From a bacterium (GTDB taxonomy: Bacteria > Patescibacteriota > Minisyncoccia > Phycocordibacterales > Phycocordibacteraceae), in contig JAHFML010000003.1 in NCBI GenBank assembly GCA_023269085.1, positions 52,863-116,862 of the forward strand: a stretch of DNA of 64,000 nt, written 5' to 3'. The translations under genes were made by a program, and so were the position numbers. The notes under the pieces are model-generated. The model was not told the origin of the DNA, did no database searches, and saw only the letters and a list, made by a program, of their open reading frames with translations. Positions 3,791-55,526 of the stretch are shown here, piece after piece (position 1 is the first letter of the stretch; the number at the start of each line of letters is the position of its first letter).

Positions 3791-5057
3791 TTCTTTTTTG
3801 CATAAGGTGAAGCTGGCGCTCGGCGATGCCGAGATCCGCTTCCGCATCCTCTTCGTCGTCGGCGCACTCGCCATCTTCCGGCTCCTTGCGGCTATTCCCA
3901 TCCCGGGAGTCGACAAGGCGGCGCTCGCGCAATTCTTCGCGAGCAATCAGTTTTTCGGTCTTTTGAATATCTTCTCGGGCGGCGGGCTCGCGCATCTCTC
4001 TATCGTGATGCTCGGCGTCGGCCCTTACATCACCGCTTCTATCGTGATGCAGCTCGCGACGATCGTCTTCCCGCAGGTGAAGGAGGCGTACTTCGAAGAT
4101 GGCGAGGCCGGTCGCGCGAAGTTCATCGAGTGGAGCCGCCTCCTCACGATACCGATCGCGGTCTTGCAGGCTATCGGCTTCCTCTTCTTGCTTCAGAATC
4201 AGCATGTCATCGGTCACTTGAGCACCGTCGCTCTCATCGCGAACATCGCAATCGTCACAGCCGGCTCGCTCCTCCTCATGTGGATCGGTGAGCTCGTGAC
4301 CGAGTTCGGTATTGGCAACGGCGTGTCGCTCATCATCCTCGCGGGTATCCTTGCGAGTGTACCGGCGAGCATCTCGCAGAGCCTCTTCGCCGCCTCGGCC
4401 GCGAACATCCCGGCCTATCTCGGCTTCATCATTCTCGCGGCCGCGATGATCTATGCGGTGGTGGTCGTTTCGGATGCCGAGCGTTCGATACCCATAGCGT
4501 ACGCCCGCGCCGTCCGCGGTGCGGCGATGGCGCAGGGAGCCGCAACGTATCTCCCGATTCGTCTCCTCCAAGCCGGCGTGATACCCATCATCTTTGCGCT
4601 CTCGCTCCTGCTCATCCCGCAGATGGCGCTCTCGATGCTCTCGACTCTGCACGTCTCCTTCGCACAGGGCGCGGCGCTCTGGTACACCGCCTTCCTCTCC
4701 AACCCGTGGCAGTACGGCGCTATCTACTTCGCGCTCGTGGTGCTCTTTACCTACTTCTATACCGCCGTCACCTTCGAGCCGAAGCGCGTCGCCGAGAATC
4801 TCCAGAAGACCGGCGCCTTCGTCCCGGGCGTGCGCCCCGGCCGCGAGACCGAGGAGTATATCAATAACGTGGTCAATCGCGTGACGCTTCCCGGAGCCTG
4901 CTTCCTCGGCCTCCTCGCGGTCTCGCCGTCGATTATCCAAGGGCTCACCGGCGTCACGACGCTCGTCCTTGGCGGCACGGCGCTCCTCATCGCGGTGCAG
5001 GTCATCCTCGACCTCGTGAACAAGATCGACGCCCAAGTCTCGCTTCGAGAATACTAA
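3783..5057 (+). CDS. secY: Preprotein translocase SecY
   Basis: MINSFLHKVKLALGDAEIRFRILFVVGALAIFR...MLGVGPYITASIVMQL...; 10 TM; ATG at 3783. Confidence 0.95.
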   Translation: MINSFLHKVKLALGDAEIRFRILFVVGALAIFRLLAAIPIPGVDKAALAQFFASNQFFGLLNIFSGGGLAHLSIVMLGVGPYITASIVMQLATIVFPQVKEAYFEDGEAGRAKFIEWSRLLTIPIAVLQAIGFLFLLQNQHVIGHLSTVALIANIAIVTAGSLLLMWIGELVTEFGIGNGVSLIILAGILASVPASISQSLFAASAANIPAYLGFIILAAAMIYAVVVVSDAERSIPIAYARAVRGAAMAQGAATYLPIRLLQAGVIPIIFALSLLLIPQMALSMLSTLHVSFAQGAALWYTAFLSNPWQYGAIYFALVVLFTYFYTAVTFEPKRVAENLQKTGAFVPGVRPGRETEEYINNVVNRVTLPGACFLGLLAVSPSIIQGLTGVTTLVLGGTALLIAVQVILDLVNKIDAQVSLREY

Positions 5058-9330: not shown

Positions 9331-10741
9331 GACGGGCTCTAACTTTTTGATCGAAGGCGTACAGGCTAAAACCGCCGAAGGCGGTTCGCCCGACGCGGCA
9401 CAGAGTGCCGCGTTTAGGGGCAAGATGCTCGTCGACTGCGGTATGGAGCAGGGGGGCGACTTCGCGGTCGCCGAGATCTATGCGCCCTTCGCCTATGATG
9501 CCGCTTCTATCGACGCGCTCGTCGTGACGCACGCGCACCTCGATCATGTCGGGCGTATCCCCAAGCTTGTGCGGGAAGGGTTCAAAGGGAAAATATATAT
9601 GACTCCGCCGACCAAGGATCTCGCGCTCCTCATCCTTCACGATTCCATTAACATCTTGCGCGAAGAAGCGATGCGCCTCGGCAGGGCGCCCTTGTATGAA
9701 GCCGAGGATGTCGAGCGCGCGACCGCACTCATCGAAACGCTCGACTATCATATTGAGAAAGAAGTGGCGCCGGGCCTCTCGGTCTATTATCGCAACACGG
9801 GGCACATCCTCGGCGCGGCGAGCGTGCGCATCACGGATGAAGAGGGCACCGTGCTCGTGCTCACGGGCGACATCGGCAACTCGCCCTCGCCGCTCCTGCC
9901 CGACTGGGAGCCGGTCCCGGGCGCCGATGCGCTCCTCATGGAGAGTGTGTATGGCGACCGGCTCCACCCGGCGCACGCTGATCGCGTCGCGCGCTTGCGC
10001 GAGGCGCTCAAGCGCGCGATAGCGAAGGGCGGCACCATTCTTATCCCATCCTTCTCGATAGAACGCACCCAGCTCATGCTCTATGAGCTCTCCAACTTCT
10101 TCTCGGCGAGCGAGCTCCCGCCGGTGCCCGTCTTCCTCGATTCGCCGCTCGCTATCCATGTGACCGAGGTGTATGAGAAGTATGGCGCGACCTACTTCAA
10201 GAGCGAGGCCGAAGAGGAGATGAAGCGCGAGAAGAGCCTTTTCGAGTTCCCCTTCTTACAGAAGACGCTCGCACCAGAGGACTCGGCCGCGATAGCGAAG
10301 GTGCCGAGCCCGAAGATTATCATCGCGGGCGCGGGCATGAGCCATGGCGGCCGCATCGGCCGCTGGGAGGCGCGCTACTTGCCCGACCCAACCACGACGC
10401 TTCTCATCGTCGGCTACCAAGCCCCCGGCTCGCCGGGCAGGCGCATGGCCGACGGCGCACCGACGGTGCGCCTCGGCGGGCAGACGATTCACAATAGAGC
10501 GACCGTCGAGATTCTCGAGGGTTGGTCGGCGCATGCTGATCGCGACGAGCTTTTGAAATTTGCCGAAGAGGCACTCACCGACAAAAATAAAAAACTCAAG
10601 ACCATCTTCGTCGCGCTCGGCGAGCCTTCGGCCGAACGGTTCCTCGCCCAGCGCATCCATGACTACCTCGGCGCGACCGCCATAGTCCCCGAGCCCGCCG
10701 AGACATGGGAGATCTCGAAGGATGAGGTGAAGAGGGTGTGA
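9293..10741 (+). CDS. MBL-fold beta-CASP family ribonuclease (RNase J/CPSF-like)
   Basis: MLKLTSFGGAGKVTGSNFLIEG...VVTHAHLDHVGRIPKL (HxHxDH); beta-CASP C-terminal motifs; start placed at the internal Met matching the duplicated fragment. Confidence 0.75.
   Translation: MLKLTSFGGAGKVTGSNFLIEGVQAKTAEGGSPDAAQSAAFRGKMLVDCGMEQGGDFAVAEIYAPFAYDAASIDALVVTHAHLDHVGRIPKLVREGFKGKIYMTPPTKDLALLILHDSINILREEAMRLGRAPLYEAEDVERATALIETLDYHIEKEVAPGLSVYYRNTGHILGAASVRITDEEGTVLVLTGDIGNSPSPLLPDWEPVPGADALLMESVYGDRLHPAHADRVARLREALKRAIAKGGTILIPSFSIERTQLMLYELSNFFSASELPPVPVFLDSPLAIHVTEVYEKYGATYFKSEAEEEMKREKSLFEFPFLQKTLAPEDSAAIAKVPSPKIIIAGAGMSHGGRIGRWEARYLPDPTTTLLIVGYQAPGSPGRRMADGAPTVRLGGQTIHNRATVEILEGWSAHADRDELLKFAEEALTDKNKKLKTIFVALGEPSAERFLAQRIHDYLGATAIVPEPAETWEISKDEVKRV
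9366..9418 (+). repeat. In-frame ~53-nt palindromic insertion element (TIR ctaaaac...gtttag, two hairpins), copy 1
   Basis: ctaaaaccgccgaaggcggttcgcccgacgcggcacagagtgccgcgtttagg; ~80% identical to 56629..56678 in gatC. Confidence 0.75.
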
Positions 10742-11809: not shown

Positions 11810-12157
11810 TTAGCTGACCTGCTTGCTGATGCGTTCGAAGATCTCGGGCTTGGTCGAGGCGAATTCGGCGAGGACCTTGCGGTCGAGGCCGATGTTGGCC
11901 TTCTTCAACTTCGCGATGAAGGTGCTGTAGGACTGGTGCCCGAGCTCGCGGACCGCGGCGTTCAAGCGGACTATCCAGAGCTGACGGAAGACGGTCTTCT
12001 TGTCGCGACGATGGGCGAAGGCGTAGCGACCGGCGCGCATCAGGGCTTCGTGCGCGAAGTTGAGCTTCTTGGAGCGATTGCCGCGATAGCCCTTGGCGCG
12101 CTCGAGGAGATTCGTGCGTCGCTTGAGTGCCATCATGCCGCCTTTGATTCTTGTCAT
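11810..12157 (-). CDS. rplT: 50S ribosomal protein L20
   Basis: MTRIKGGMMALKRRTNLLERAKGYRGNRSKKLNFAHEALMRAGRYAFAHRRDKK. Confidence 0.95.
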   Translation of the reverse strand: MTRIKGGMMALKRRTNLLERAKGYRGNRSKKLNFAHEALMRAGRYAFAHRRDKKTVFRQLWIVRLNAAVRELGHQSYSTFIAKLKKANIGLDRKVLAEFASTKPEIFERISKQVS

Positions 12158-13030: not shown

Positions 13031-13318
13031 TCAGAGTATCTCAAAGAACGGAACGGACGTCACAGGAAACAGATCCGAACTGATGATGGAATCAGGGGAC
13101 AGCACCCACTCGTTGTTCTGAAAGATTAGTAGGTATGTTTGACCCGAGGGAGACCGTACGCGGGTTCCGCGTCTTCCCTTGGGGGGAAAGCATGGCACAA
13201 ACAGGCATTGATTCCGTGTGCCGCGTTTCTCCTGTGCAGGCTGCGTCATAAGCCAAAAGCTCTGAGCGTAGTATCCAACAACATCGCCGGATGTTATTAC
13301 ACCGTTGTGCGAGTCCAT
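13031..13318 (-). CDS. Small hypothetical protein (95 aa)
   Basis: Strong SD (AAGGAG, 5 nt spacing) upstream of ATG; terminator downstream; no recognisable domain. Confidence 0.35.
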   Translation of the reverse strand: MDSHNGVITSGDVVGYYAQSFWLMTQPAQEKRGTRNQCLFVPCFPPKGRRGTRVRSPSGQTYLLIFQNNEWVLSPDSIISSDLFPVTSVPFFEIL

Positions 13319-17754: not shown

Positions 17755-17813
17755 CGCCACAGCAGAAAGGGGCTTTCGCCAGTCGGCAGGCTCGGCCGTT
17801 TTCTGCTGTGGCG
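17755..17813 (+). promoter_or_regulatory. Conserved 5' leader stem-loop of DGR-1 target gene (paralogue at 54000..54058)
   Basis: cgccacagcagaaa...tttctgctgtggcg 14-bp stem with an inner hairpin; ~85% identical to the copy upstream of the second DGR target, with compensatory changes in the inner stem. Confidence 0.7.
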
Positions 17814-17887
17814 AACCGAATATGTCGGTGCGTCGTACAGCACGCGACAATATCAGCAATGATAGTCGCACAAAAGGAGATCGCATC

Positions 17888-18604
17888 ATGTTGACCGACT
17901 CTCGCACCATCGCTCAAGCATACGGTCTTGGGCAAAAAGTTTTCTCCGCCGGCGAGGTTGCCGGTATGACGCCAGAGCTTTGGAATGCTCTGGCTCAAGA
18001 CGCGCGATTGTTTGCGCAGCTTCCGGCGATGATCCGCGGCTCTTTGGCGGATGCGTTGGCTGAACAGCGCGAACAGCAACCCAAGTTCTTCACTCACATC
18101 GCGACGACCAACCTTGCCGCGACTGTGGGCAAAAAGACGAGGAAGTGTTTCGTTGGCAGTCGCTATACGTATCGCGACAACGACTTCGACAACTGGCTTC
18201 CCGCCAATCAGCCATCCGCCGATGCCTGCGTTATCACAACGCTTGCTTCTGAGCAGGACTGGACGTTTGCCGAAGCCGCTGCCAAAGTCCTAGGTGTTGG
18301 CGCTGGCACGAACATCATCTTGCTCGGCAAAGCGCTCATCGAGAACGGTCATATCATGACCTTGGCGCAAGCTGAAGAAATGATCGAAGCCAACGAGCAC
18401 GGCGAGAACACCGGTATGCACCGCGATGGTCGGGGCAATTTCTTCTTCGTGGAAACGGAGGACGAAAATAATCCCGTCTCGGTTGGCGGCGTCGGTCGCG
18501 TTGAGCGCGCTTGGGTCGCGTACGTCGGCTGGCTCGTCAGCGGCGATCGCTGGGACGCTGGCGGTCGGCTCCTCGTCCGCAACTTGGACGCTTCGAAACT
18601 CTGA
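17888..18604 (+). CDS. DGR-1 target protein with C-terminal variable region
   Basis: SD AAAGGAGA 7 nt upstream of ATG 17888; C-terminal 36 codons form the VR. Confidence 0.75.
   Translation: MLTDSRTIAQAYGLGQKVFSAGEVAGMTPELWNALAQDARLFAQLPAMIRGSLADALAEQREQQPKFFTHIATTNLAATVGKKTRKCFVGSRYTYRDNDFDNWLPANQPSADACVITTLASEQDWTFAEAAAKVLGVGAGTNIILLGKALIENGHIMTLAQAEEMIEANEHGENTGMHRDGRGNFFFVETEDENNPVSVGGVGRVERAWVAYVGWLVSGDRWDAGGRLLVRNLDASKL
18475..18583 (+). repeat. DGR-1 variable repeat (VR)
   Basis: 109 nt aligning to the TR at 18863..18971; ~20 mismatches, 19 at TR adenines. Confidence 0.9.
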
Positions 18605-18862
18605 CACTTGGTCTCTTTCGAGTGTCCTCTAATTACTCCTCTCACGTATTACGCGTGCGAGGAGTATACTTTTGTCTGAACACGCTGGCATCTTCGGTTC
18701 CCAAACTTGAGGTGGCGAGGTTCCGGGTAAGTTCACCCGAAAAAAGAAATATAAGTTGGTGTGTCGCGCTGGTGGGCTCACGGCCCCGAATAAGATACAG
18801 CTCAGAGAGCATTCGATGGGTGGTAACCTTCGCTGGTGGTAAGGATGGTGCGACACACAAAG

Positions 18863-18971
18863 CGTCTCGGTTGGCAACGTCAATCGCGATGAGCGCGATT
18901 GGAACGCGAACGTCAACCGGCTCGACAACGACAATCGCTGGAACGCTGACAATCGGCTCCTCGTCCGCAAC
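18863..18971 (+). repeat. DGR-1 template repeat (TR)
   Basis: Intergenic; rich in AAC/AAT/GAC codons in the VR frame; all but one difference from the VR are at adenines. Confidence 0.9.
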
Positions 18972-18976
18972 AGATC

Positions 18977-19336
18977 TTACTTTCTCTCGCTTTCTGCGGG
19001 AGTTTTCTTTTCAAGATATGAACGCCATGCGACCAGCATTTTGCTTGCATCAACAAGTAGTCCGCTTATACGTACATGTTGAGCGTTCGTAATCGCATTA
19101 CTCTCCCACCCGACAAGTAGAAGGAATTTCGCCACATCGAGTCGGGCAATTGAGATGTTGAGCGCAGAAATCTTTTGCGCGGACGGAAGATATGCCGCAG
19201 AAAAGGCAGATTCAAGCGTGTCGAGAAGAGCCGTGTCAATTCTCGTACCGATAGTCTGTCGCTTCGTTTTGGCAACGTGAGGGAGTGCTGCTTGCCAAGC
19301 GAGATACGCCTCCTTCAATTTCGATACTACGGGCAC
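18977..19336 (-). CDS. avd: Accessory variability determinant (Avd) homologue, DGR-1
   Basis: 119-aa four-helix-bundle-type protein; resembles Bordetella phage Avd; homologous to the 55141..55509 ORF; GTG start. Confidence 0.7.
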   Translation of the reverse strand: MPVVSKLKEAYLAWQAALPHVAKTKRQTIGTRIDTALLDTLESAFSAAYLPSAQKISALNISIARLDVAKFLLLVGWESNAITNAQHVRISGLLVDASKMLVAWRSYLEKKTPAESERK

Positions 19337-19361
19337 GAGCTTTTCTTGTTGCGGAAACGTC

Positions 19362-19373
19362 GGGGGGGGGGGG
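19362..19373 (+). repeat. Homopolymeric G12 tract in the 50-nt divergent avd/RT intergenic region
   Basis: cgtcGGGGGGGGGGGGtacgttcagaagaATG; lies 14 nt upstream of the RT ATG and 26 nt upstream of the avd start. Confidence 0.95.
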
Positions 19374-19386
19374 TACGTTCAGAAGA

Positions 19387-20409
19387 ATGGATAGAATAAA
19401 TATCACTCATTCCTTCGACAATATCACCTTGGTAGATAATTTGCTCGACGCGTGGAAAGAATTCTTGCGCGGCAAACAGAAGAGGAAAGACGTGCAAGTA
19501 TTCGGATATAATCTAATTGAAAATATAAAAAGCATCCACGCGGACCTCATTTCCGGCATCTACCAGCACGGCCAGTACGAGCACTTCAAAATCAACGACC
19601 CAAAGCCCCGCGACATCCACAAAGCGAGCGTGCGCGACCGGCTCGTGCACCATGCCATTTATCGCATTCTCTACCCATTCTTCGATCGCACTTTTATCAG
19701 CGACTCCTACTCCTGCCGCAATGGGAAGGGGACGCACAAAGCCATGAATCGCTTTAGAGCCTTTGCGCGCAAAGTATCGAAGAATGACACGCGCACTGCT
19801 TGGGTCTTGAAGTGCGACATACGCAAGTTCTTCGCATCGATTGATCAGCCAACGCTCCTCGCCCTCTTGAGAGAACGCATTTCAGACGAACGCACCCTGC
19901 TACTCCTGCAACGAGTTATCGAGAGCTTCTCAAGTACAGCGAGAGGGAAAGGCCTCCCGCTCGGCAATCTCACCTCACAGCTCCTCGTGAACATCTACAT
20001 GAACGAGTCCGATCAATTCGTGAAGCATATACTCAAAGCGAAATACTATATCCGCTATGCCGATGACTTCGTATTCATCTCCCACGATCGCAGAGAACTC
20101 GAGGCGCTTCTGCCTCGTGTCGATGCCTTTTTGCGCGACCGGCTCAAGCTCGAATTGCACCCGAATAAAGTCTCAATCGCCACGCTCGCTTCGGGTATCG
20201 ACTTCTTGGGCTGGGTGCATTTCTCTGACCATCGCGTCTTGCGAGGCGCGACGAAGCGACGGATGTTGCGGAGGATTGAAGAGACGAGCGACAAGCCGGA
20301 GGTGATGAGCTCGTATCTGGGGATGCTAGAGCATGGAAATGGGTACAAGTTGCGAGAAGAGATTATGTATTTGCATACACTCACCGAGGCGCGTACCATG
20401 GTGGCATGA
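19387..20409 (+). CDS. DGR-type reverse transcriptase, DGR-1
   Basis: RT motifs including YADD and the DGR-characteristic LGNLTSQ (motif 4, in place of the group II QGxxxSP); start could alternatively be the upstream in-frame ATG at 19285. Confidence 0.9.
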   Translation: MDRINITHSFDNITLVDNLLDAWKEFLRGKQKRKDVQVFGYNLIENIKSIHADLISGIYQHGQYEHFKINDPKPRDIHKASVRDRLVHHAIYRILYPFFDRTFISDSYSCRNGKGTHKAMNRFRAFARKVSKNDTRTAWVLKCDIRKFFASIDQPTLLALLRERISDERTLLLLQRVIESFSSTARGKGLPLGNLTSQLLVNIYMNESDQFVKHILKAKYYIRYADDFVFISHDRRELEALLPRVDAFLRDRLKLELHPNKVSIATLASGIDFLGWVHFSDHRVLRGATKRRMLRRIEETSDKPEVMSSYLGMLEHGNGYKLREEIMYLHTLTEARTMVA

Positions 20410-24462: not shown

Positions 24463-25299
24463 ATGTTAGCAGTATCGAAATTCAGAACGACCGTGTGGCG
24501 CTACTACCGAGAGCAGGGGCGGCATGATTTGCCGTGGAGGAAGACGCAGGATTTGTATCACATTCTCGTTTCTGAAGTGATGTTGCAACAGACGCAGGTA
24601 CATCGGGTACTCCCGATGTATGCCGAGTTCACGAAGCGTTTCCCGACGGCGCGGCGGCTTGCCGCCGCGCCGCTCTCTGAAGTGCTCAAAGTGTGGCAAG
24701 GGCTCGGCTACAATCGCCGCGCGAAAATGTTGCACCAAGCGGCGAAGGAAATTGAAGCACGCCCGACAAGGTTCGACCTTGAGGATTCGGATGTAAGGTC
24801 GAACCTTGTCGGGCGGCTCGAGGCGTTGCCCGGGGTGGGGCACTACACCGCGCGAGCCGTCGCGGCCTTCGCCTACAACGAAGACACCATCGTCATTGAG
24901 ACGAATATTCGCACGGCGGTTATCCATCACTTTTTTGCCGAGAGAACCGACAAAGTCTCGGATGCGGAAATTACTGAAGTACTCGCGCGCGCCCTGCCGC
25001 GAGGCGGGGCGCGCGACTGGTACAGCGCGCTCATGGACTATGGCGCGCACTTAAAGCAGATCGGCATCTCGCACAATGCCCGCACACAGGCGTCGGCGAA
25101 GCAGTCGAAGTTCGCGGGTTCGCTCAGGCAAGCGCGCGGGGCTCTCTTGCGAGAGCTCGCGCGCGGCGCGCAGAGCGCGCCGCATCTCCGCAACCTTTTG
25201 GGCGTCGACCGGCGCGACCAGGTGAACGCCGCTCTCAACGCGCTCCTCACCGAAGGCTTTCTGCAAAAAGAAAAAGGGAAGTATCGCCTTGCCGGCTAA
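24463..25299 (+). CDS. HhH-GPD DNA glycosylase (MutY/Nth-like) with C-terminal winged-helix-like domain
   Basis: LVSEVMLQQTQVHRVLPMY...LPGVGHYTARAVAAFAY HhH-GPD; no obvious 4Fe-4S Cys cluster. Confidence 0.7.
   Translation: MLAVSKFRTTVWRYYREQGRHDLPWRKTQDLYHILVSEVMLQQTQVHRVLPMYAEFTKRFPTARRLAAAPLSEVLKVWQGLGYNRRAKMLHQAAKEIEARPTRFDLEDSDVRSNLVGRLEALPGVGHYTARAVAAFAYNEDTIVIETNIRTAVIHHFFAERTDKVSDAEITEVLARALPRGGARDWYSALMDYGAHLKQIGISHNARTQASAKQSKFAGSLRQARGALLRELARGAQSAPHLRNLLGVDRRDQVNAALNALLTEGFLQKEKGKYRLAG
24762..24813 (+). repeat. In-frame perfect palindrome (19-bp arms, 14-nt spacer) inside the glycosylase gene
   Basis: cccgacaaggttcgacctt gaggattcggatgt aaggtcgaaccttgtcggg. Confidence 0.9.
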
Positions 25300-26477
25300 C
25301 GGAAATCTTTGATACACAAGGTTGCGATGGTGCCCGCGATCATGACGAATCCGCCCGTGAGCGCGAAGAAAAGCGGATAATTATAGTGACTGCAAAATAG
25401 GATTAGCGTGCCTGCGAGCGGTGCGAGTATGTTCGAGAGTGGCCACACGCCGCGGAAGACGCTCACTGACACGATGTCTTGTTCGGAGACACGGCGGAAG
25501 AAGTGCCCCTCGGTCATACTCTCGATCAAGGCCGCGCCGACGCGAGTTGCGAGCAGAACGGTGATGATAACGAGCACTGATGAGTGCGCGGTGATGAGGC
25601 CGATCGACGAGAGCGCCGCCCCTGCAATGATGAAGCCCGCGAGCATCATCTCCTTGTCGCCGAGGACACGATCGGCGACCCATCCGGCGGGATATTCGAT
25701 AAGGACATAGGGCAGAAGCATGAGCGAGAAGACCCAGCCGAGCTCGCTCCACGGGAGGCCGAGCACGCCGTGGAGGTAGACCGGCACATAGAGCGGCGCC
25801 CACATATAGAACATATACAAAATAAGATGGCCGATAGTGACTGCCGCGAGGTCGCGATTGTGCACGAGGTGGTGGAGCGTGTCGTGCACATGAGAGGGAT
25901 TGGGCGCCGTTCCATGGGGCAATTTGCGGAGCGAGAAGATGACGATGAAAGGCACGAGCACTGCGGCGGCGGTGAAGAAGACGAACGAGTAGCTCTCGGT
26001 CGACGCGAGCAGGGTGCCGATAAGAAGCGGCGCGACAAGGGAGCCGAGGTTGCCGCCGGTGAGGAACAATGTCCGTGCGCGGCCAGTCGTGCTCTCGCCG
26101 TCTATCGTCGCTTCGAGGAGAAGGTCGAGGCCGTAGTAGAGAATAGGCTGGAGTGATATGACGAGCACGACAAAAATCGCGCTCGCGATCGTGCTCGGCG
26201 CCGCCGCGACCGCGAAGAGCAGGATCATCGTGGTGAAGACTGAGGCGAGTGTGAGCCACTGAGCGCCCGTGCGCGCGACGATGCGCGGCAAGAAGAAGAA
26301 GAGTGCGAGCGCGGCCGCCGCGCCGAGCGCGATCGCGAAGCCGATGAGTGCCGCGGGGATGAAGGTGAGGAGATACGAGATGAGCGTGTAGCTCACCAAG
26401 GTTGATGAGACCGCGATAAAAAAGTTCCCGAGAAATAGCGTCGTCCGTGCGGGCATGGTTATCGTAGAGTTTAGCAT
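25296..26477 (-). CDS. MFS transporter
   Basis: 12 TM; start uncertain (26477 or 26456). Confidence 0.8.
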   Translation of the reverse strand: MLNSTITMPARTTLFLGNFFIAVSSTLVSYTLISYLLTFIPAALIGFAIALGAAAALALFFFLPRIVARTGAQWLTLASVFTTMILLFAVAAAPSTIASAIFVVLVISLQPILYYGLDLLLEATIDGESTTGRARTLFLTGGNLGSLVAPLLIGTLLASTESYSFVFFTAAAVLVPFIVIFSLRKLPHGTAPNPSHVHDTLHHLVHNRDLAAVTIGHLILYMFYMWAPLYVPVYLHGVLGLPWSELGWVFSLMLLPYVLIEYPAGWVADRVLGDKEMMLAGFIIAGAALSSIGLITAHSSVLVIITVLLATRVGAALIESMTEGHFFRRVSEQDIVSVSVFRGVWPLSNILAPLAGTLILFCSHYNYPLFFALTGGFVMIAGTIATLCIKDFR

Positions 26478-26492
26478 GAACGAAATCAATTT

Positions 26493-26517
26493 CGGGTGGA
26501 CACTAGGTGTCCACCCG
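26493..26517 (+). repeat. 25-bp inverted-repeat element copy 1 (cgggtggacac-tag-gtgtccacccg)
   Basis: 11-bp perfect arms with a 3-nt spacer; 4 copies in the window. Confidence 0.95.
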
Positions 26518-26609
26518 TGTGTTTGCATATTGTCGCGCTCTGTGGCATGCTCACAGCGGACCCCGAGACGCGTTTTGGGGATGTTCCACAAACTGTGAAG
26601 GAGAAAATC

Positions 26610-27155
26610 ATGGACGAGTCCATGCAATTTGATGTGCTGAAGGGTACGGCAATGTTACCTGCCTGCAAACTCAAATCGGGTGTTCTGCGACGTCTCGTTG
26701 AGGAGATGTTTTACGAAAGTCACGGGAGCGCGCAGACATTTGCGTCCATATTTCAGGGCCATATGTTTCTGCAAAGCATATCAAATGGAATGGTTAACTG
26801 GACACGATGTCCCGGACTAGGGATGCAGACACGCGCTTATATGGTCGGGTCTGCGCGAAGTGACGAGGAAACGCAGAATCTGTGCGTAGCGTGGGTAGCG
26901 GGGTCGCGTGAGGAAATCGTATGGGTTATCGTCAAGACCTCACGCGCCGCCGGGCCGAGAGCGGAGGTGTCGCCAATCAGCGATACCGAAGTTGATGTGT
27001 TTTTGCAAGAGCGATTGGCGAACGCGAATTGGCATTTAAACGCCATCGTTCAGCATCTGAACACGCAACTCTGCATGCTTGAAGAGAGGCGTAGGAATCT
27101 GACCTCTGCTCACTATCTACTTGCGGGCGCGTTGAGGCGGATTGATTGGCCATAA
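26610..27155 (+). CDS. Hypothetical protein (181 aa)
   Basis: SD AAGGAGA 5 nt upstream; terminator downstream; bracketed by IR-element copies 1 and 2. Confidence 0.55.
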   Translation: MDESMQFDVLKGTAMLPACKLKSGVLRRLVEEMFYESHGSAQTFASIFQGHMFLQSISNGMVNWTRCPGLGMQTRAYMVGSARSDEETQNLCVAWVAGSREEIVWVIVKTSRAAGPRAEVSPISDTEVDVFLQERLANANWHLNAIVQHLNTQLCMLEERRRNLTSAHYLLAGALRRIDWP

Positions 27156-27175
27156 TCAGACCGCCGCGAAAAAAT

Positions 27176-27216
27176 CGCGGGCACGCCAGAGGCGTGCCCG
27201 CGGTTTCTCTTTTTTA
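27176..27216 (+). terminator. Rho-independent terminator
   Basis: cgcgggcacgcc agag gcgtgcccgcg + tttctctttttt. Confidence 0.7.
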
Positions 27217-27228
27217 CTTCTATCCTCG

Positions 27229-27253
27229 TGGGTGGACACTAGGTGTCCACCCA
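27229..27253 (+). repeat. 25-bp inverted-repeat element copy 2
   Basis: tgggtggacactaggtgtccaccca. Confidence 0.95.
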
Positions 27254-27255
27254 TT

Positions 27256-29184
27256 TTACATACCGATGAGGACAGGGATGACCATCGGCGCTTTGTTGGT
27301 GCGCGCGAAGAGGAATCCGGCGACGACGTCGGTGAGATTATTCTTCACGTAGTCGAGATCGATCGGGTTCATCCCGTTCGTCGAATCTTCGATCGTCTTC
27401 TTGATCAAGATGCGCGCTTCGTTCAAGAGCGACTGGCTCTCGCGCAGGTAGATGAAGCCGCGGCTGATGATGTCGGGGCTCTTGCGAAGCTTGCCGGTCT
27501 TCAGGTTGACGCTCGCGATGATGACGAACATGCCGTCCTTGGCGAGCGACTGGCGGTCGCGGATAACGACCTCCTGCAAATCGCCGATAGTGAAGCCGTC
27601 GACGACGAGCGGTGCTGAGGGGACCTTCTCTTTGTGCACGACCATTTCCTTGCCGTCGATGATGTCGATGACGATGCCGTTGTCGGGGATGATGACGTTC
27701 TCCCTCGGGAAGCCGGCTTGCTCGACCGCGCGCGCGTGGCAGGTGGTCATCGAGCGGTAGCCGTAGCTCGGCATGAAGAACTTCGGATGCACCTTCTGAT
27801 TGATCCACACGAGCTCGCCTGAGTTGCCGTGGCCGGTCGAGTGCACATCCGAAGAGCGGTAGTGGATGATGGTCACGTTGTTGCGATACAAATTGTCCTT
27901 CAATTTTTGCACCGAGATCTCGTTGCCCGGGATGACGGAGGAGGAGAGGACGACGGTATCGCGATCGTTGAACTGGATGTACTTGTGCTGCTTGGTCGCG
28001 ATGCGCATGAGGGCCGCGAACTCTTCGCCCTGCGCGCCGGTCGCAAGCACGATGATCTTATTCGGCGGGTAGTCCTGCATGTCCTGCGCCTGGATCAGCG
28101 TATCTTTGTTGACGGTGAGGAGGCCGGCGCGCTCGGCGATCTCGATATTGGTCTTGATCGAGCGGCCTTCGGTGACGACCTTCTTGCCGTACTTCTCAGC
28201 GAACTGGATGATGTTGATCATGCGCTCGAACTGCGATGCGAAGGTGCCGATGATAAGGCGGCTCTGCACCGTCTTGACGATCTCCTCGAGGGTGAGGAGG
28301 ACGCGCGCCTCGGGGATAGAGAAGCCGTCGCGCTCGGCGTTGGTCGAGTCGGCGATGAAGAAGAGGTTATCGTCTTTGCCGATGTCGCCCCAGGTCTTCT
28401 GTTCGATCTCGGTCGGGACGCCGTCGACATGGTCGAGCTTCAAGTCGCCGGTGATGACCACGTTGCCGTAGGGCGTGCTCATCGAGACACCCATCGAGTC
28501 GGGAATAGAGTGCGTGACGGGGAAGAACTTCACTTTGGTCTTCCCGAGCGTTACCTCAGAGCCGACTTCGATTTCGTTGATGACCGGCGCGGGAACGTCT
28601 GGATACTCCTCTTGGCGGCGCTGGATCATGATGCTGGTCGCGCGACGCGTGTAGAGGGGCGGATTGCCGAAGCGGGGGAGGAGGAAGGGGATGCCGCCGA
28701 TATGGTCGAGGTGGCCGTGGGTGATGATGACCGCGCGGATACGATCCATGTTCTTCTCGAGGAACTTCGTGTTCGGGAGCGTGTAGTCGACGCCGGACAT
28801 GTTCTCTTCGTCTTTGAAGTGGAAGCCCGCGTCCATCACGATAATGTCGCCGTTCACATCGATAGCGACCATGTTGCGGCCGACCTCTTCGGCGCCGCCC
28901 AAGGGGACGATGCGAACAACGTTCTCGCCCGGCTTCTCGGGATAATAATCGGTCGTGCGCGGGGCGCGCGTGCCGCCGACGCCGGGGCGCCGGAGGATGC
29001 GCTGGATGCGCCGAGTGACGCCGCCCGGGCGGGAACCGCCGCGTGCGGTGCTGTCGCCAGTGCGTCGCGGGCCGCTGCGATGCGGAGGGCGCGTGGGGTG
29101 CTCGTGCGGTGTCGCTTCTGGACGCGGAGTGTGTGTCGGATGTGCTGGTGTCGGCGCGGGGGCCGGAGCAGGTGCTTGGTTCAT
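27256..29184 (-). CDS. rnj: Ribonuclease J
   Basis: MBL HxHxDH (ITHGHLDHIGG), beta-CASP and C-terminal domains; ~95-aa Pro/Arg/Thr-rich low-complexity N-terminal extension. Confidence 0.88.
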   Translation of the reverse strand: MNQAPAPAPAPTPAHPTHTPRPEATPHEHPTRPPHRSGPRRTGDSTARGGSRPGGVTRRIQRILRRPGVGGTRAPRTTDYYPEKPGENVVRIVPLGGAEEVGRNMVAIDVNGDIIVMDAGFHFKDEENMSGVDYTLPNTKFLEKNMDRIRAVIITHGHLDHIGGIPFLLPRFGNPPLYTRRATSIMIQRRQEEYPDVPAPVINEIEVGSEVTLGKTKVKFFPVTHSIPDSMGVSMSTPYGNVVITGDLKLDHVDGVPTEIEQKTWGDIGKDDNLFFIADSTNAERDGFSIPEARVLLTLEEIVKTVQSRLIIGTFASQFERMINIIQFAEKYGKKVVTEGRSIKTNIEIAERAGLLTVNKDTLIQAQDMQDYPPNKIIVLATGAQGEEFAALMRIATKQHKYIQFNDRDTVVLSSSVIPGNEISVQKLKDNLYRNNVTIIHYRSSDVHSTGHGNSGELVWINQKVHPKFFMPSYGYRSMTTCHARAVEQAGFPRENVIIPDNGIVIDIIDGKEMVVHKEKVPSAPLVVDGFTIGDLQEVVIRDRQSLAKDGMFVIIASVNLKTGKLRKSPDIISRGFIYLRESQSLLNEARILIKKTIEDSTNGMNPIDLDYVKNNLTDVVAGFLFARTNKAPMVIPVLIGM

Positions 29185-29255
29185 ACTGGTTGAGTGGTTA
29201 TTCGGGCTTGTAAAATAATTAATGAGACCCGTACGAAAATGATAAGAAACTTTTT

Positions 29256-30992
29256 CTAGCGAGCGAAGAACGGCCAGACCGCGTCGGTCGCGCGATACCA
29301 CGAGGCGATCGTCGCGAAGCGATCAGAGGGAGTGATGATCTGAGGGAGCACGACGCCGGAGAGATCAGAGGGAATCGCGTAGATGAAGTCAGGCGAGTAG
29401 ATGAAGGCGGCAGGATAGTCGGCCGAAACTAGGTCTTCTATCTTCTGCAGAGCTTTGACGCGCGTCTCGGTATCTGTGGTCGTGCGTGCGTTCTCGAGTA
29501 GTGTGTCGACGGACTTATTCGCATAGAGGGCGATGTTCAGCCCGGGGTCGTTACGCTCTTGAGAATCCCAGAAGGCGTAGAGGTCTTGATCGCGGCCGAT
29601 GACCTCTCCATAGAGAAGAGCATCATACTTACGCGGGCGGATGACGTTCTGTGACAGGTCGCCCGGCTCATAGAGCTCGATAGCGACGCCCACGCCGAGT
29701 TTCTCCCACCCCGCCTTTACCGCACCCGCGACATTCTTGAGTTCAGGAACATTACTTGTGCGGATGGTGATGGTGGGAATCGTGAGCTTTGCTTTCGTTC
29801 CGCCTTGGGCGAATTGCCAGACACGCGACGAGCCGTCGTATGTCCAGCCACTCATGGTCAATACCTGGGCCGCGTTCGTAATCGGGTCGCTCGTCGTTGG
29901 GATGGTCGTTTGAGTTACATTCCCGCCAGGGGGAACGGGCCCTAGTATCGGTGTCGCGTAGCCGCCCAGAACCGAGGTGATAATAGCTTTACGGTCGATG
30001 GCCAACGAAAGCGCCTTGCGTACTTCAGTCCGCGCATAAATCTTTTGCTGATCGGGATTCCAGAACACGCCGAAGACGCGCGCATACGGTGCGGTTACGA
30101 CATGCGTCGAAGGAATGCCATATGCGCTCTCTATTGAACCGTTCTTGAGCGCATTCGCCTTATCATCACTGTTCGTGTAGAAGGTGAAGGTAATCTCGTC
30201 GAGATATGGCCGACCAAGTACATATTTCTGATTCGCGCCGAGCGATACGCTCTTGATAAGACCGGACGCATCGCGCGAGATGCTCACAATCTTGAACGGT
30301 CCGTTCCCGACAGGATTCGTCTCGAGGGTAGAGAAGGGGAACTCTGTGGTACCGATGCTCTGCCAGAGGTGCGCCGGCAGGATGCCAAGCGTTGTGAGAC
30401 CGATGAATGGCGAATAAGGCTTCGTGAGCGTGAAGCGCACCGTCCCCTTATCGACGGCGACGACTGACACGCCTGACCAGTTCGCGTACTCCGGGCTCTT
30501 GAGCGCGGGGTCCTGCGCTTTCTTCACAGTGAAGACGACATCATCTGCTGTTATTGGCGTCCCATCGGTAAAGAGGGCGTTAGGACGCAGGGTGAAGGTG
30601 TAGATTTTACCGTCGTCGCTCACCGTGTAGTCGCTCGCGAGCACCGGCACGAGATTGCCCTTGCCGCCGATGCCCATGAGTCCTGCGTAGGTTAGGCTTG
30701 ACAGATCACGATCGGCGTCGCTGATAGCGAGAAGCGGATTTATGAATTGTGGAGAACCTATTTCTCCTTCAGAGAGCGTGCCGCCATAAGTCGGTACTTG
30801 CACCAAGAGCGCCTGCTCGAGAGCCATGAAGCTCGCAATCGACGAAATGACAACGCCGAGAGCGAGTATTGAGAAAATAGCGCGGTCGCCGCGCGAGAGC
30901 GCGACGACATACTCGCTCGCATGTTCGAACATCGCGGCGCGCCGAATGCGTTTCATTTCTGCTCGCCAATCCGGGCGGCTGTCATCCGTCAT
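29256..30992 (-). CDS. ABC transporter substrate-binding protein, family 5 (peptide/nickel type)
   Basis: SBP_bac_5-like length and motifs; N-terminal TM anchor. Confidence 0.75.
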   Translation of the reverse strand: MTDDSRPDWRAEMKRIRRAAMFEHASEYVVALSRGDRAIFSILALGVVISSIASFMALEQALLVQVPTYGGTLSEGEIGSPQFINPLLAISDADRDLSSLTYAGLMGIGGKGNLVPVLASDYTVSDDGKIYTFTLRPNALFTDGTPITADDVVFTVKKAQDPALKSPEYANWSGVSVVAVDKGTVRFTLTKPYSPFIGLTTLGILPAHLWQSIGTTEFPFSTLETNPVGNGPFKIVSISRDASGLIKSVSLGANQKYVLGRPYLDEITFTFYTNSDDKANALKNGSIESAYGIPSTHVVTAPYARVFGVFWNPDQQKIYARTEVRKALSLAIDRKAIITSVLGGYATPILGPVPPGGNVTQTTIPTTSDPITNAAQVLTMSGWTYDGSSRVWQFAQGGTKAKLTIPTITIRTSNVPELKNVAGAVKAGWEKLGVGVAIELYEPGDLSQNVIRPRKYDALLYGEVIGRDQDLYAFWDSQERNDPGLNIALYANKSVDTLLENARTTTDTETRVKALQKIEDLVSADYPAAFIYSPDFIYAIPSDLSGVVLPQIITPSDRFATIASWYRATDAVWPFFAR

Positions 30993-31228
30993 GCTCCTGA
31001 CAGAAGGAAGCTCGCTATCGCCGCAAGTACGAGCAAAATCGCGATAAGTACGGTCGCGTTGAATAGGAATTTCTCCGCGCCTCTGCGCTTGTAGAAAGTT
31101 GACGCGAAATTATCACCGCCGAAGGCTCCGCCGAGGGTCGCGCCGCGCTGTTGGAGCACGATGCCGACGATAAGGAGCAGGGCGAGGGTGATCTCTGCGT
31201 ACGGTAGTGCCGATACGAGTGCTTCCAT
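30989..31228 (-). CDS. secG: Preprotein translocase SecG
   Basis: Two TM helices with Gly-rich loop (LLIVGIVLQQRGATLGGAFGG). Confidence 0.7.
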   Translation of the reverse strand: MEALVSALPYAEITLALLLIVGIVLQQRGATLGGAFGGDNFASTFYKRRGAEKFLFNATVLIAILLVLAAIASFLLSGA

Positions 31229-31279
31229 CTGTGCTCTCAAGATACCATGCCGCCCGCGCGTCGTGCAAGTCGATGAAAA

Positions 31280-31304
31280 CGGGTGGACACTAGGTGTCCA
31301 CCCG
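31280..31304 (+). repeat. 25-bp inverted-repeat element copy 3
   Basis: cgggtggacactaggtgtccacccg. Confidence 0.95.
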
Positions 31305-31336
31305 TCTGTCGCCTACCGGCATCGCATATTATTCAA

Positions 31337-31384
31337 TCAAAGCTCGTCCGGGCGGATGCCTGCGTACTTCAAGATCTCGTGCAA
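31337..31384 (-). pseudogene. hicA: hicA C-terminal remnant fused out of frame to the hicB 3' end
   Basis: +1 frame encodes ...QDTLHEILKYAGIRPDEL, matching the HicA C-terminus (compare intact HicA 33976..34185 ...LVRIAKHTGLTSEDL); the rest of hicA is absent. Confidence 0.55.
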
Positions 31385-31542
31385 AGTGTCTTGTACCCGC
31401 CGATGGCGTCCTCGGCCATCTGGTGCGCCTGTTCGACGGTCTTGCCGTAAGTAATGCATCCGGGCAGAGAGGGAACAATGACGGTATAGCCGCCCTCCGG
31501 CTCCGGCCGCAGGATTATTTGGTACGACGCCGTCTTTTTCAT
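31369..31542 (-). CDS. hicB: HicB-family antitoxin (orphan)
   Basis: MKKTASYQIILRPEPEGGYTVIVPSLPGCITYGKTVEQAHQMAEDAIGGY. Confidence 0.75.
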   Translation of the reverse strand: MKKTASYQIILRPEPEGGYTVIVPSLPGCITYGKTVEQAHQMAEDAIGGYKTLCTRS

Positions 31543-31650
31543 GGCTGCATTGTACCATATTCGTACAAAAAGTTGCATCACGTCGCACAGGGTCTATACT
31601 TCGAACACCAGTGCTCGGGCGATTATTCATTTATATAGATACAAAAGACT

Positions 31651-33668: not shown

Positions 33669-33700
33669 CAACATTGTGAAAGTCTGACTTTCACAAACAG

Positions 33701-36556: not shown

Positions 36557-36991
36557 ATGGAACCAACCACGGAAGTAAAACCGAAAGCGACTAAAACTTC
36601 CTCAGGAAGTTCGTCCGACACTTCGCGAAGCGAAGTGTCTAGGAAGCGTGTTTCGAAGAAGGTCGCGGCCGTCGCTCCGGTAGTCGAGCACAAGCTCCGG
36701 ATCCGGGTTCGCGCCTATGAGCACAAGATTCTCGATCTCTCGGTGAAGCAGATCATGGACACAGCGGCGCGTTTCGACGCGGTGATCGTGGGCCCTGTCC
36801 CGCTCCCGACCGAGATCAAGCGTTGGACAGTGAACCGCTCGACCTTCGTCCACAAGGACGCGCGCGAGCAGTTCGAGATGCGCATCCATAAGCGCCTCAT
36901 CGACATCCGGAACCCGTCGCCGAAGGTGATCGAGGCCCTCACGAACCTCAATCTCCCCTCCGGTGTGACGATTGATGTGAAGATGGTGTAG
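36557..36991 (+). CDS. rpsJ: 30S ribosomal protein S10 with ~42-aa Lys/Ser-rich N-terminal extension
   Basis: ...HKLRIRVRAYEHKILDLSVKQIMDTAARFDAVIVGPVPLPTEIKRWTVNRSTFVHKDAREQFEMRIHKRLIDI. Confidence 0.9.
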   Translation: MEPTTEVKPKATKTSSGSSSDTSRSEVSRKRVSKKVAAVAPVVEHKLRIRVRAYEHKILDLSVKQIMDTAARFDAVIVGPVPLPTEIKRWTVNRSTFVHKDAREQFEMRIHKRLIDIRNPSPKVIEALTNLNLPSGVTIDVKMV

Positions 36992-47641: not shown

Positions 47642-47826
47642 ACGATTGGAAGAAGGCTATAGAAAAGGAGGAACCGCCCTCAAGCGTGGCGGTTCCCGAG
47701 TGAACTTAGTCAGTATACACTGAACAATAGTCTTTGCAAGGCGACGGTGGGCAGGTTATCCACACCGGTCTCCCACAATTGGCTTGCGAGGCGTATACTG
47801 TAGCCATTAACCGTTTACAATAAATT

Positions 47827-51913: not shown

Positions 51914-53956
<2,043 letters not shown>

Positions 53957-53999: not shown

Positions 54000-54058
54000 C
54001 GCCACAGCAGAAAGGGGCTTCCGCCAACCGGCGGACTAGGCCGTTTTCTGCTGTGGCG
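54000..54058 (+). promoter_or_regulatory. Conserved 5' leader stem-loop of DGR-2 target gene
   Basis: cgccacagcagaaa...tttctgctgtggcg; paralogue of 17755..17813. Confidence 0.7.
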
Positions 54059-54120
54059 AACCGAATAGGTACGCTTGAACAGCACTGTAAAAACGCTCTT
54101 CCCAAGCCAAGGAGAAAGTC

Positions 54121-54714
54121 ATGAGCGCACAACAGAAGCAAATCACGAAACTAGTGGCCGCTCTGGTCGAGTTTTCTGACCAGTTCGGCCAGATGTCGAC
54201 CGAGGATTGCCAATGGGCAATCCAAAACACGAAAGCGGCAATCGGCCTCTTCGTAGAGGCGGTGAGGAATCGCCCGATAGCAGCTCTGGTCGGGTTGCCA
54301 GAAGGCACGGTCATCCGTCGCGTGAAGGTCGACCGCTCGCATTCTCCGCAGAAAATGGTGAACGCGACCGGCCGTAGGCAGTACATCGACAAGGACATCC
54401 TCGCGACGATGCCTTTGGGCGAAGGCGACGAGGTGGATGTGTACTTCGTACCGACCAAGCGCTTCGTTTTGGCAAGTGAGGTCTCGGCGTTTCTCGCGCA
54501 GTATGGTCTCGTTCCCGACCCGCGCGCGCAAACGGCGGTGAACGAAGCCGATCCGACCTTCGCCGACGACCATCCGAACGGAACGCAATGGAGCGATTTT
54601 TGCTACCTGACGTTCTACCGCTGGTATGACGAGCGGGACGTGTACTGCAACCGCGACGACCGCGTCTGGCGCGGCTATTGGTTCCTCTCGGGTGTCCCGA
54701 CTCCCCGCAAGTAA
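54121..54714 (+). CDS. DGR-2 target protein with C-terminal variable region
   Basis: SD AAGGAGA 5 nt upstream; VR occupies the last ~36 codons (…CYLTFYRWYDERDVYCNRDDRVWRGYWFLSGVPTPRK). Confidence 0.75.
   Translation: MSAQQKQITKLVAALVEFSDQFGQMSTEDCQWAIQNTKAAIGLFVEAVRNRPIAALVGLPEGTVIRRVKVDRSHSPQKMVNATGRRQYIDKDILATMPLGEGDEVDVYFVPTKRFVLASEVSAFLAQYGLVPDPRAQTAVNEADPTFADDHPNGTQWSDFCYLTFYRWYDERDVYCNRDDRVWRGYWFLSGVPTPRK
54601..54707 (+). repeat. DGR-2 variable repeat (VR)
   Basis: 107 nt aligning to 55025..55131; ~14 mismatches, all at TR adenines. Confidence 0.9.
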
Positions 54715-54763
54715 GTCCTCGGGTCTTTGAGTATAAGAACTCTTTAGACCCTTAACCCTTTGT

Positions 54764-54792
54764 GCGCCGCTTTCCCAAGCGGCGCATTTTGT
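54764..54792 (+). terminator. Rho-independent terminator after DGR-2 target
   Basis: gcgccgc tttcccaa gcggcgc + attttgt. Confidence 0.7.
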
Positions 54793-55024
54793 ATATGATG
54801 CAAATGGTAGTAGGCGAATACGGAAGCGATTACGGTTTCTTCCTGCCGAATCCAGTATCCGTACGTTGAGAACGTGTGCGATTACGGTTGCATATGGAGG
54901 ATGTACGCAGAAACTTCAAAAAATGAAGATACTTGGTGTGAAGTGCTGGCGCATTACCGATGCCGAATACGATTCAACCTTGAGAATACTCGATGGGTGG
55001 TGGCACAGATGGCGCTCCATACAT

Positions 55025-55131
55025 TGCTACCTGACGTTCAACCGCTGGAATGACGAGCGGAACGTGAACTGCAACCGCAACGACAACGACTGGAACGACA
55101 ATTGGTTCCTCTCGGGTGTCCCGACTCCCCG
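55025..55131 (+). repeat. DGR-2 template repeat (TR)
   Basis: AAC-rich in VR frame (…NRWNDERNVNCNRNDNDWNDNWF…); intergenic. Confidence 0.9.
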
Positions 55132-55140
55132 TAACTCTCT

Positions 55141-55509: not shown

Positions 55510-55516
55510 GAGCCTC

Positions 55517-55526
55517 GGGGGGGGGG
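55517..55526 (+). repeat. Homopolymeric G10 tract between divergent avd-2 and RT-2
   Basis: agcctcGGGGGGGGGGagcttcgaag; 8 nt upstream of avd-2 start. Confidence 0.95.

Follow-up and report, generated by a model that had tools for sequence, protein, structure and literature searches.

A short palindrome occurs four times in the window, the 64,000-nt (64-kb) stretch of a Patescibacteriota contig (JAHFML010000003.1, positions 52,863 to 116,862) analysed here. The palindrome reads GGGTGGACAC-TAG-GTGTCCACCC, and its 23-mer, GGGTGGACACTAGGTGTCCACCC, is found without mismatches at 26494-26516, 27230-27252, and 31281-31303 (copies 1 to 3). A fourth copy lies in the reverse orientation (GGGTGGACACCTAGTGTCCACCC, with the loop CTA on the plus strand) at 52252-52274, in frame within ligA. 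Copy 1 is located between the divergent genes for an MFS transporter (minus strand) and a 181-aa open reading frame (ORF; plus strand), copy 2 lies 3 nt past the stop codon of RNase J, between convergent genes, and copy 3 follows a small inserted ORF. Three of the four copies are extragenic and all are singlets. Past RNase J the gene order continues with a family-5 solute-binding protein, secG, and GroEL, and ligA is found 20 kb further on. The window is from a Patescibacteria genome of the Parcubacteria/Paceibacteria type, and homologues of RNase J and LigA come from metagenome-assembled genomes of Parcubacteria, Paceibacteria, Kaiserbacteria, and other Patescibacteria. The features of the locus are collected in Table 1.

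The 23-mer has 4 matches in the window against 0.00 expected from 100 dinucleotide-preserving shuffles (no match in any of them), a number which is not consistent with chance. An earlier, sequence-only reading of the window had placed copies at 26493, 27229, and 31280 and one more in ligA. It had also described copies 1 and 2 as direct repeats with a spacing of 736 bp, bracketing a single gene (26610..27155) with its own Shine-Dalgarno sequence and terminator. The exact 23-mer was confirmed at all four sites, as were the direct orientation and the 736 bp from start to start, the bracketed ORF has GGAG as its Shine-Dalgarno sequence, and a bidirectional terminator is located at 27172-27206. The description of the repeat as a 25-bp unit with perfect arms was correct in part: arms of 11 bp do pair, but the invariant unit is 23 nt long and the 11th pair varies, yet stays complementary.

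In all four window copies the 11th pair outward is a complementary one, C-G in copies 1, 3, and 4 and T-A in copy 2. Across 19 distinct aligned copies it is CG in 10, AU in 4, UA in 4, and unpaired in 1. The arms reach 12 bp in copy 3, and the ligA copy forms a perfect 16-bp stem at 52246-52280 (CCTCGCGGGTGGACAC-CTA-GTGTCCACCCGCGAGG). Folded as single-stranded DNA (ssDNA), the copies range from -12.5 to -22.4 kcal/mol in folding energy and from -5.9 to -7.9 in z-score. The outer arms are partly common to several copies (CCTCGC in ligA, CCTCGT in copy 2, CACCCTGC in locus L028, described below), so part of the arm extension was inherited from a source copy. No Rfam family was found at the copies and no tRNAs near them, and the promoter scan returned nothing at copy 1. 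The terminator scan flagged copy 1 weakly and left copies 2-4 unflagged. The lone 10-nt arm has no further mismatch-free occurrence in the window, and a DNA-uptake sequence was rejected because the single arm is never found alone there.

The same arms beside Y1 transposase genes

Motif scans covered one genome per species and the Joint Genome Institute metagenomes. The 10-bp arms with other loops were found in 13 stretches, most of them from Patescibacteria. Among the genome matches to the arms 5 of 6 came from Patescibacteria, with about 1 chance match estimated for the whole collection. Neither the genome nor the metagenome collection yielded a further contig of the window's own genome, and the viral collection contained no copy of the palindrome motif. 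A Y1 (IS200-like) transposase gene stands beside the palindromes in 3 of the 13 stretches (L006, L002, and L001), and Y1 genes flanked on both sides by such palindromes are found in six lineages (L006, L028/L029, L002, L001, L024, and L030).

In L006, GGGTGGACAC-TTA-GTGTCCACCC occurs at 82 and 837 around a Y1 gene at 182-817, which makes a 778-bp unit. In L028/L029 the exact 25-mer of the window, CGGGTGGACAC-CTA-GTGTCCACCCG, occurs at 9962 and 10717 around a Y1 gene (P0246) at 10001-10702, and a third copy at 9057 lies 4 nt past the stop codon of the upstream gene. The copy downstream of the L028 Y1 gene has 28 identical nt in common with copy 3 of the window. The remaining four lineages have their own arms around the core GACAC-N3-GTGTC, which is common to all Y1-flanking palindromes. 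The Y1 gene is bracketed by TTGCCGACAC-TAA-GTGTCGGCAA in L001, by TGATGGACAC-GTA-GTGTCCATCA in L024, and by TTGACAC-GTC-GTGTCAA in L030. In L002 the palindromes on either side of it are shorter versions, and an adjoining ORF, acetyltransferase-like as read from its sequence, is bounded by a full copy.

Both copies around a Y1 gene have the same loop and are thus in direct orientation; this applies to L001, L006, L024, L028, and L030, and to the two copies around the 181-aa ORF of the window. A hairpin-gene-hairpin layout with an unrelated passenger adjoins the Y1 gene in L028 (a 213-aa ORF) and in L002 (the acetyltransferase-like ORF). In L024 and L030 the Y1 gene occupies one conserved site, between pilC and the first pilin gene. 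The equivalent pilC-pilin spacer of the window (47642-47826) is empty. One palindrome arm is duplicated beside some Y1 genes, GGGTGGACACC before the full copy in L028 (9951-9961) and GTGTCCACCC after it in L006 (105-114), and such duplicated arms may be traces left by cutting and rejoining.

The L006 protein, used as a query, returned about 205 clusters, many of them on contigs of about 1 kb, and all named ones were Patescibacteria. The protein matches Pfam Y1_Tnp (PF01797, E 2e-7), and its best NCBIfam family is the repetitive extragenic palindrome (REP)-associated tyrosine transposase, or RAYT (NF047646, E 2e-7 to 4e-9). It is about 232 aa long with an extra C-terminal helical region. The HUH motif (N89-H90-x-H92) and Y150 (in YxMVKNP) show no variation among 32 members. 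When its AlphaFold model (pLDDT, the predicted local distance difference test, 90.3) was compared with the PDB, the top match was 4ER8, in which the E. coli RAYT is bound to a REP hairpin (Foldseek probability 1.00); the TnpA proteins of IS608, ISDra2, and IS200 came next. The predicted structure thus shows a RAYT-like fold with the HUH and tyrosine motifs.

These associations bear on an operator of a dimeric transcription factor, or a restriction-modification or homing-enzyme site, which the perfect two-fold symmetry of the palindrome, its conserved arms, its free central 3 bp, and the position of copy 1 between divergent genes would all suit. The sequence-only reading had offered an operator pair for a dimeric regulator and a restriction-modification site among its guesses. 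However, only copy 1 lies between divergent genes, and 3 of the 4 copies are outside promoter regions. The flanking bases covary and so lengthen the stem, for which a protein that binds duplex DNA would have no need. The copies have no gene for a regulator, a methylase, or an endonuclease next to them, and elsewhere the gene flanked by the same arms encodes a Y1 transposase, neither a regulator nor a methylase. Both guesses were set aside, and a protein-binding site of this kind is hardly credible.

The palindrome is a real, non-chance repeat and most probably a REP-like element of a RAYT-like system specific to Patescibacteria. Classical REPs are palindromes of 20-40 bp, located mostly just downstream of ORFs, and they also lie on both sides of the Y1 gene (PMC3733652; PMC6006769). 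With copy 2 lying 3 nt past the RNase J stop codon and the L028 copy 4 nt past a stop codon, the placement is like that of classical REPs. The 23-nt palindrome is best explained as a short hairpin-forming repeat which is unable to move alone and is part of the GACAC-N3-GTGTC family. The reading in which a RAYT-like Y1 (HUH) enzyme spreads this REP-like hairpin family in trans is given a probability of roughly 0.78. The evidence includes the repeat, its hairpin potential, the association with Y1 genes elsewhere (with the exact 25-mer in L028), the motifs and fold of the Y1 protein, the lack of both inserted segments in relatives, and the covariation of the 11th pair and of the ligA stem (see below). 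Each copy, when on ssDNA, would fold into a stem of 11-16 bp with a 3-nt loop. The Y1 enzyme would recognise the stem, cut it, and rejoin it through the catalytic tyrosine, and by cutting and rejoining would seed new copies in trans. Copies would persist at sites where the damage is slight: just past stop codons, between genes, or, with the frame preserved, in tolerant surface loops such as the ligA linker. The enzyme is the putative agent that cuts and spreads these hairpins.

Several results weigh against the assignment to a REP-like family. No Y1 homologue was found in the window by TBLASTN or by a six-frame search with the family profile (best E 3.6), and none in the 10 kb of genes listed past its right edge. 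The Y1 protein scores 30.7 and 36.6 bits against NF047646, far below the cut-off of 80, and PDB sequence searches with the protein and its family profile had no match. None of the flanks of the 19 aligned copies contain a conserved GTAG or CGTC tetranucleotide, and the window copies are singlets, not inverted doublets of the BIME (bacterial interspersed mosaic element) or REPIN type. The link between L028 and the window consists of repeat identity, a common sample, and composition, and is not at the level of the assembly. In favour of this link, P0246 is also present in ENA sample ERZ27297709, which has a contig with the ligA of the window at 100% identity. Tetranucleotide frequencies of L028 and the window correlate at 0.969, a value inside the span given by 10.7-kb chunks of the window itself (0.958-0.979) and above that of every other locus. 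L028 is thus compatible with an origin from the same genome, and its Y1 gene may belong to it.

Two inserted segments and the palindrome copies

The segment bracketed by copies 1 and 2, which the sequence-only reading had taken for a possible mobile mini-cassette, is missing at all 6 related loci examined (L014-L019). The alignment of the window with L014 (~84% nucleotide identity) runs from secG through RNase J, skips 26486-27252 (segment A), and resumes in the MFS gene. In its place L014 has 75 nt with a terminator and a different hairpin, and in L015-L019 the MFS gene comes directly after RNase J. Because the segment is missing in all relatives examined, the presence/absence polymorphism is real, and segment A is an insertion in the lineage of the window. 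Relative to L014, its left break point precedes copy 1 by 7-8 nt and its right one coincides with the end of copy 2. The G+C content of segment A is 0.53 and that of the flanking genes 0.60.

Table 1. Palindrome copies, genes, and inserted segments at the locus (window coordinates)
Feature	Position	Strand	Remarks
Palindrome copy 1, REP-like (C-GGGTGGACAC-TAG-GTGTCCACCC-G)	26493..26517	+	DNA hairpin -13.6 kcal/mol, z -6.7
Palindrome copy 2, REP-like (T-...-A)	27229..27253	+	abuts right break point of segment A
Palindrome copy 3, REP-like (12-bp arms)	31279..31305	+	10 nt inside the secG-proximal end of insertion B
Palindrome copy 4, REP-like	52246..52280	-	perfect 16-bp stem, in frame in ligA
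MFS transporter gene	25299-26456	-	left neighbour of copy 1
Hypothetical ORF, 181 aa	26610..27155	+	own GGAG Shine-Dalgarno sequence
Bidirectional intrinsic terminator	27172..27206		12-16-bp GC stem, A-run before, T-run after; inside segment A
RNase J gene	27259-29301	-	right of copy 2
secG	30992-31240	-	beside segment B
Segment A, insertion holding the 181-aa ORF	26486..27252		no counterpart in relatives
Segment B, ~303 nt	31271..31573		holds copy 3 and a HicB-like ORF; missing from L014
ORF, 57 aa	31369..31542	-	N-terminal part of HicB-like antitoxins (PF15919, E 9.5e-9)

The 181-aa ORF has no Pfam or NCBIfam family and no HUH motif, and an exact look-up of the protein gave no match. The public gene call for it is 202 aa long (P0241). 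It has a single full-length relative at 29% identity (E 7e-10) and is close to an orphan. No second copy of segment A and no close homologue of the ORF were found. Two possible origins of the ORF were rejected: it is not a degenerate Y1 protein, having no family match and no HUH motif, and it is unrelated to the 213-aa passenger ORF of L028. Residues 5-52 (window 26610-26765) match a unit which is repeated 18 times in the 5703-aa protein P0242 and 6 times in the 1501-aa protein P0244.

The ends of segment B are ambiguous by 4 nt, AAGT being present at both of them. Copy 3 lies 10 nt from the junction on the secG side and the segment has a copy at this end only. No hicA partner of the HicB-like ORF was seen. 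The three intergenic copies are best explained as marking the edges of two recent small insertions, one with the 181-aa ORF and the other with the hicB-like ORF, and we infer that REP copies take part in the insertion of segments A and B.

The mini-cassette proposal stands in so far as segment A is missing at 6 of 6 loci, its break points lie 0-8 nt from the palindromes, and the palindrome family is tied to a transposase. Movement by the two copies of the cassette itself is another matter, as no second cassette copy was found and the gene is nearly an orphan. The REP-like reading can be extended by supposing that the Y1 enzyme excises and inserts the DNA between two direct copies, so that 26493-27253 would be a mobile single-gene unit. 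In that case the two copies would serve as the hairpin termini, left and right, of an IS200/IS605-type element, or as recombination sites on folded single strands. The break points, both within 0-8 nt of the two copies in the comparison with L014, and the repeated hairpin-gene-hairpin modules with unrelated passengers beside the Y1 genes of L002 and L028 favour hairpins which move the enclosed DNA. The copies are direct, as are the hairpins around every Y1 gene seen, the 759-bp module is close in size to the 778-bp hairpin-Y1-hairpin unit of L006, and the G+C content of the segment is below that of its neighbours.

The lack of a second copy or close homologue, the near-orphan gene, and the other palindromes past the RNase J stop codon in L014 and L015 suggest a landing-site preference instead, and this stop site may be a preferred landing site. 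Segment B has a palindrome copy at one end only, and REPs tend toward gene ends anyway (PMC3733652). Movement of the enclosed gene by its paired copies, in either of these two forms, is a tentative and rather unlikely reading. A fuller version would be a gene-capture system with a RAYT-like enzyme, in which hairpin-bounded single genes move as ssDNA units. Its function would be like that of integron cassettes but driven by an HUH enzyme, and the copies in ligA, enolase, and gatA (see below) would be kept as perfect palindromes by selection on DNA or RNA structure and not on the protein. Both parts of this version are unlikely.

The RNase J stop codon also raises the question of whether the palindrome is chiefly a structural signal in RNA or DNA that selection has kept. 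It might stabilise mRNA 3' ends, assist termination, or serve as a landing pad for a protein, and it would be repeated on account of its function and not through mobility. Copy 2 lies directly past this codon and different hairpins occupy the same spot in L014 and L015. The stems are very stable, compensatory changes preserve the ligA stem, and classical REPs are credited with such roles (PMC3733652). Such a signal leaves unexplained why the same sequence brackets Y1 genes in other genomes, why a 16-bp stem lies in an essential coding region, and why copies are located at insertion break points. There is also no U-tract after copies 2-4. As the primary explanation it is quite improbable, and a secondary role of this type for the REP-like palindrome is possible.

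Other palindromes were seen after stop codons as well. In the window TTGTGAAAGT-CTG-ACTTTCACAA, with a perfect stem and a 3-nt loop, lies at 33674-33696, 6 nt after groEL. After RNase J, L014 has an imperfect palindrome at 4199-4219 (TAGGGAC-ATCGTAA-GTCCCTA, 7-bp stem, 7-nt loop) and L015 a perfect one at 11917-11943 (ACGTGTGAAGGT-TTA-ACCTTCACACGT, 12-bp stem, 3-nt loop). Differing palindromes straight after stop codons suggest a turnover of hairpin families at fixed sites.

Palindromes inside ligA and other genes

Copy 4 lies in frame in ligA (51932-53956, plus strand), where it encodes GGHLVST in the variable linker before the KxDG adenylation motif. The linker is 9 aa long (RKVSGxxPT) in 88 of the 110 homologues with a readable linker (120 were listed), and 17 aa long in the window. 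The palindrome thus keeps the reading frame and is missing from most homologues. At this position about 20 other LigA homologues also contain inserts, whose peptides include GHPMSQGHRMS, GLTKSQGLRKS, and MSGRGTSRH, and unrelated palindromes occupy this site in other lineages. In L022 the insert DNA is GGACATCCGATGTCC-CAG-GGACATCGGATGTCC, and the ligA of L022 carries an inverted doublet of another palindrome.

The insert of L021, whose LigA is 80% identical to that of the window, is CCTCGTCGGTGGACAC-CTA-GTGTCCACCGACGAGG. It differs from the window insert at 4 positions which form 2 compensatory pairs, so the 16-bp stem stays perfect while 2 amino acids are changed. The 300 nt downstream of the insert are 84% identical between the two, and the chance of two compensatory pairs in the stem was estimated at about 2.5e-4. 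The comparison of these two sequences shows a ligA stem kept perfect through compensatory change.

Templated correction of quasi-palindromes is an established mutational mechanism. It could in principle account for the palindromes without transposition, the identical copies being relics of duplication or gene conversion. The ligA stem did change symmetrically, and complementary bases that are not conserved extend the palindrome past its core in 18 of the 19 aligned copies. However, such correction cannot put the same 23-mer at four unrelated loci, or beside a transposase in other genomes, and as the origin of the family it is very improbable. It may well explain the arm extension and the symmetry once a REP-like copy is in place.

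Palindromes in frame were also seen in other genes. The enolase gene of L001 (4662-5900) contains two perfect ones, encoding LCIPGMHK and VGGHPVSTH, and gatA of L022 contains one with a 20-bp stem (13068-13110). A second palindrome family, TGTGCAACAC-CTG-GTGTTGCACA, is present in the window at 56081-56103, in frame in a reverse-transcriptase gene (55607-56542). The paralogue at 19285-20409 is without this palindrome and is 5 codons shorter there. The palindrome resembles the insert CCTTGTGCATAC-CTG-GTATGCACAAGG in the L001 enolase gene.

Known systems and further elements of the window

The closest known system is the REPtron of E. coli, Pseudomonas, and Stenotrophomonas, in which REPs or BIMEs are paired with TnpA-REP (RAYT). 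Both systems have short dispersed repeats located mostly just past ORFs, and a Y1 HUH gene flanked by the same repeat, here in related contigs and not in the window. The two also share a conserved chromosomal position of the Y1 gene, here in some lineages (pilC-pilin in L024 and L030), and the predicted fold is nearest to 4ER8. The classical REP carries an unpaired tag, GTAG or CGTC, at one end of the palindrome (PMC3733652), whereas the present family has none. Its stems are perfect with a 3-nt loop, in contrast to the imperfect, bulged stems of REPs, and its copies around a gene are direct singlets instead of inverted doublets. The protein is longer and divergent (about 232 aa with the C-terminal helical region, below the curated RAYT cut-off), and the hosts are Patescibacteria, which the surveys consulted do not include. 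No report linking REP/RAYT systems to Patescibacteria was found in the literature.

The IS200/IS605 elements and their gene-less derivatives also have a Y1 gene between two hairpins on the same strand and a proposed ssDNA mechanism. The transposase-free hairpin-gene-hairpin module resembles one of their derivatives mobilised in trans. However, the left hairpin does not differ from the right one here, the copies yielded no conserved tetranucleotide for cleavage, and in some lineages the Y1 gene seems to be present once and in a syntenic position, not in multiple copies. The isolated 23-nt hairpins are far shorter than the IS200/IS605 derivatives.

Intragenic REPs are found in other phyla, including in the DNA ligase of Opitutus terrae (PMC3733652). 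Like these and the Rickettsia palindromic elements (RPE), the ligA copy is a palindrome that sits in frame within a conserved housekeeping gene, at a variable loop which tolerates it. Unlike them, several unrelated palindromes occupy one ligA site here, and the stem was kept perfect by compensatory changes. RPE-1 inserts are much longer than the palindromic inserts described here.

Integron cassettes are similar in that a single gene is bounded by hairpin-forming sites, in the proposed recombination of folded single strands, and in presence/absence polymorphism. Their attC sites are about 57-141 bp long and imperfect, with extrahelical bases, and the integrase/attI platform is adjacent. Here the site is a perfect 23-nt palindrome, and the associated enzyme is an HUH Y1 protein instead of a tyrosine recombinase. 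No integron platform was found beside the copies, whose neighbours are MFS, RNase J, the solute-binding protein, and secG; the check for an integrase was confined to these surroundings.

Patescibacteria genomes are very small and tightly packed and are thought to be poor in repeated DNA. For this group, a REP-like family served by a divergent Y1 enzyme of its own would be an additional mobile-DNA system, and it would account for unusual short peptides inserted into conserved proteins (GHPMS, GHRMS, and GGHLVST, for example). As many of the Y1 genes are on contigs of about 1 kb, the family is also flagged as a source of assembly breaks. The ligA site is a natural experiment in which differing palindromes occupy one position, and it bears on how hairpins are targeted and maintained. 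If it were true that paired hairpins move the enclosed gene, this would be a new route of gene gain in Patescibacteria.

Further elements were found in the window. Two diversity-generating retroelements lie at 18475-20409 and 54600-56542. Each has a variable/template repeat pair (18475-18583 and 18863-18971; 54600-54710 and 55024-55134) followed by an RVT_1 gene, and the repeat mismatches fall at A in the template copy in 19 of 20 and 12 of 13 cases, respectively. The second retroelement is an insertion that separates ligA from gatC, two genes which adjoin each other in the relatives L021 and L022. Upstream of both retroelement loci there is a copy of a 71-nt repeat (17755-17825 and 54000-54070, 90% identical). 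A 35-nt repeat, CTAAAACCGCC-GAAG-GGCGGTTCG..., occurs three times (9366-9400, 36591-36625, and 56629-56663). A group I intron (RF00028; Rfam hit at 59030-59235, plus strand, 56 bits, E 1.4e-11) spans about 59000-59295 and appears to interrupt a tRNA gene. ARAGORN detected no tRNA in the intact window and one after in-silico removal of about 59022-59237, its anticodon depending on the splice point.

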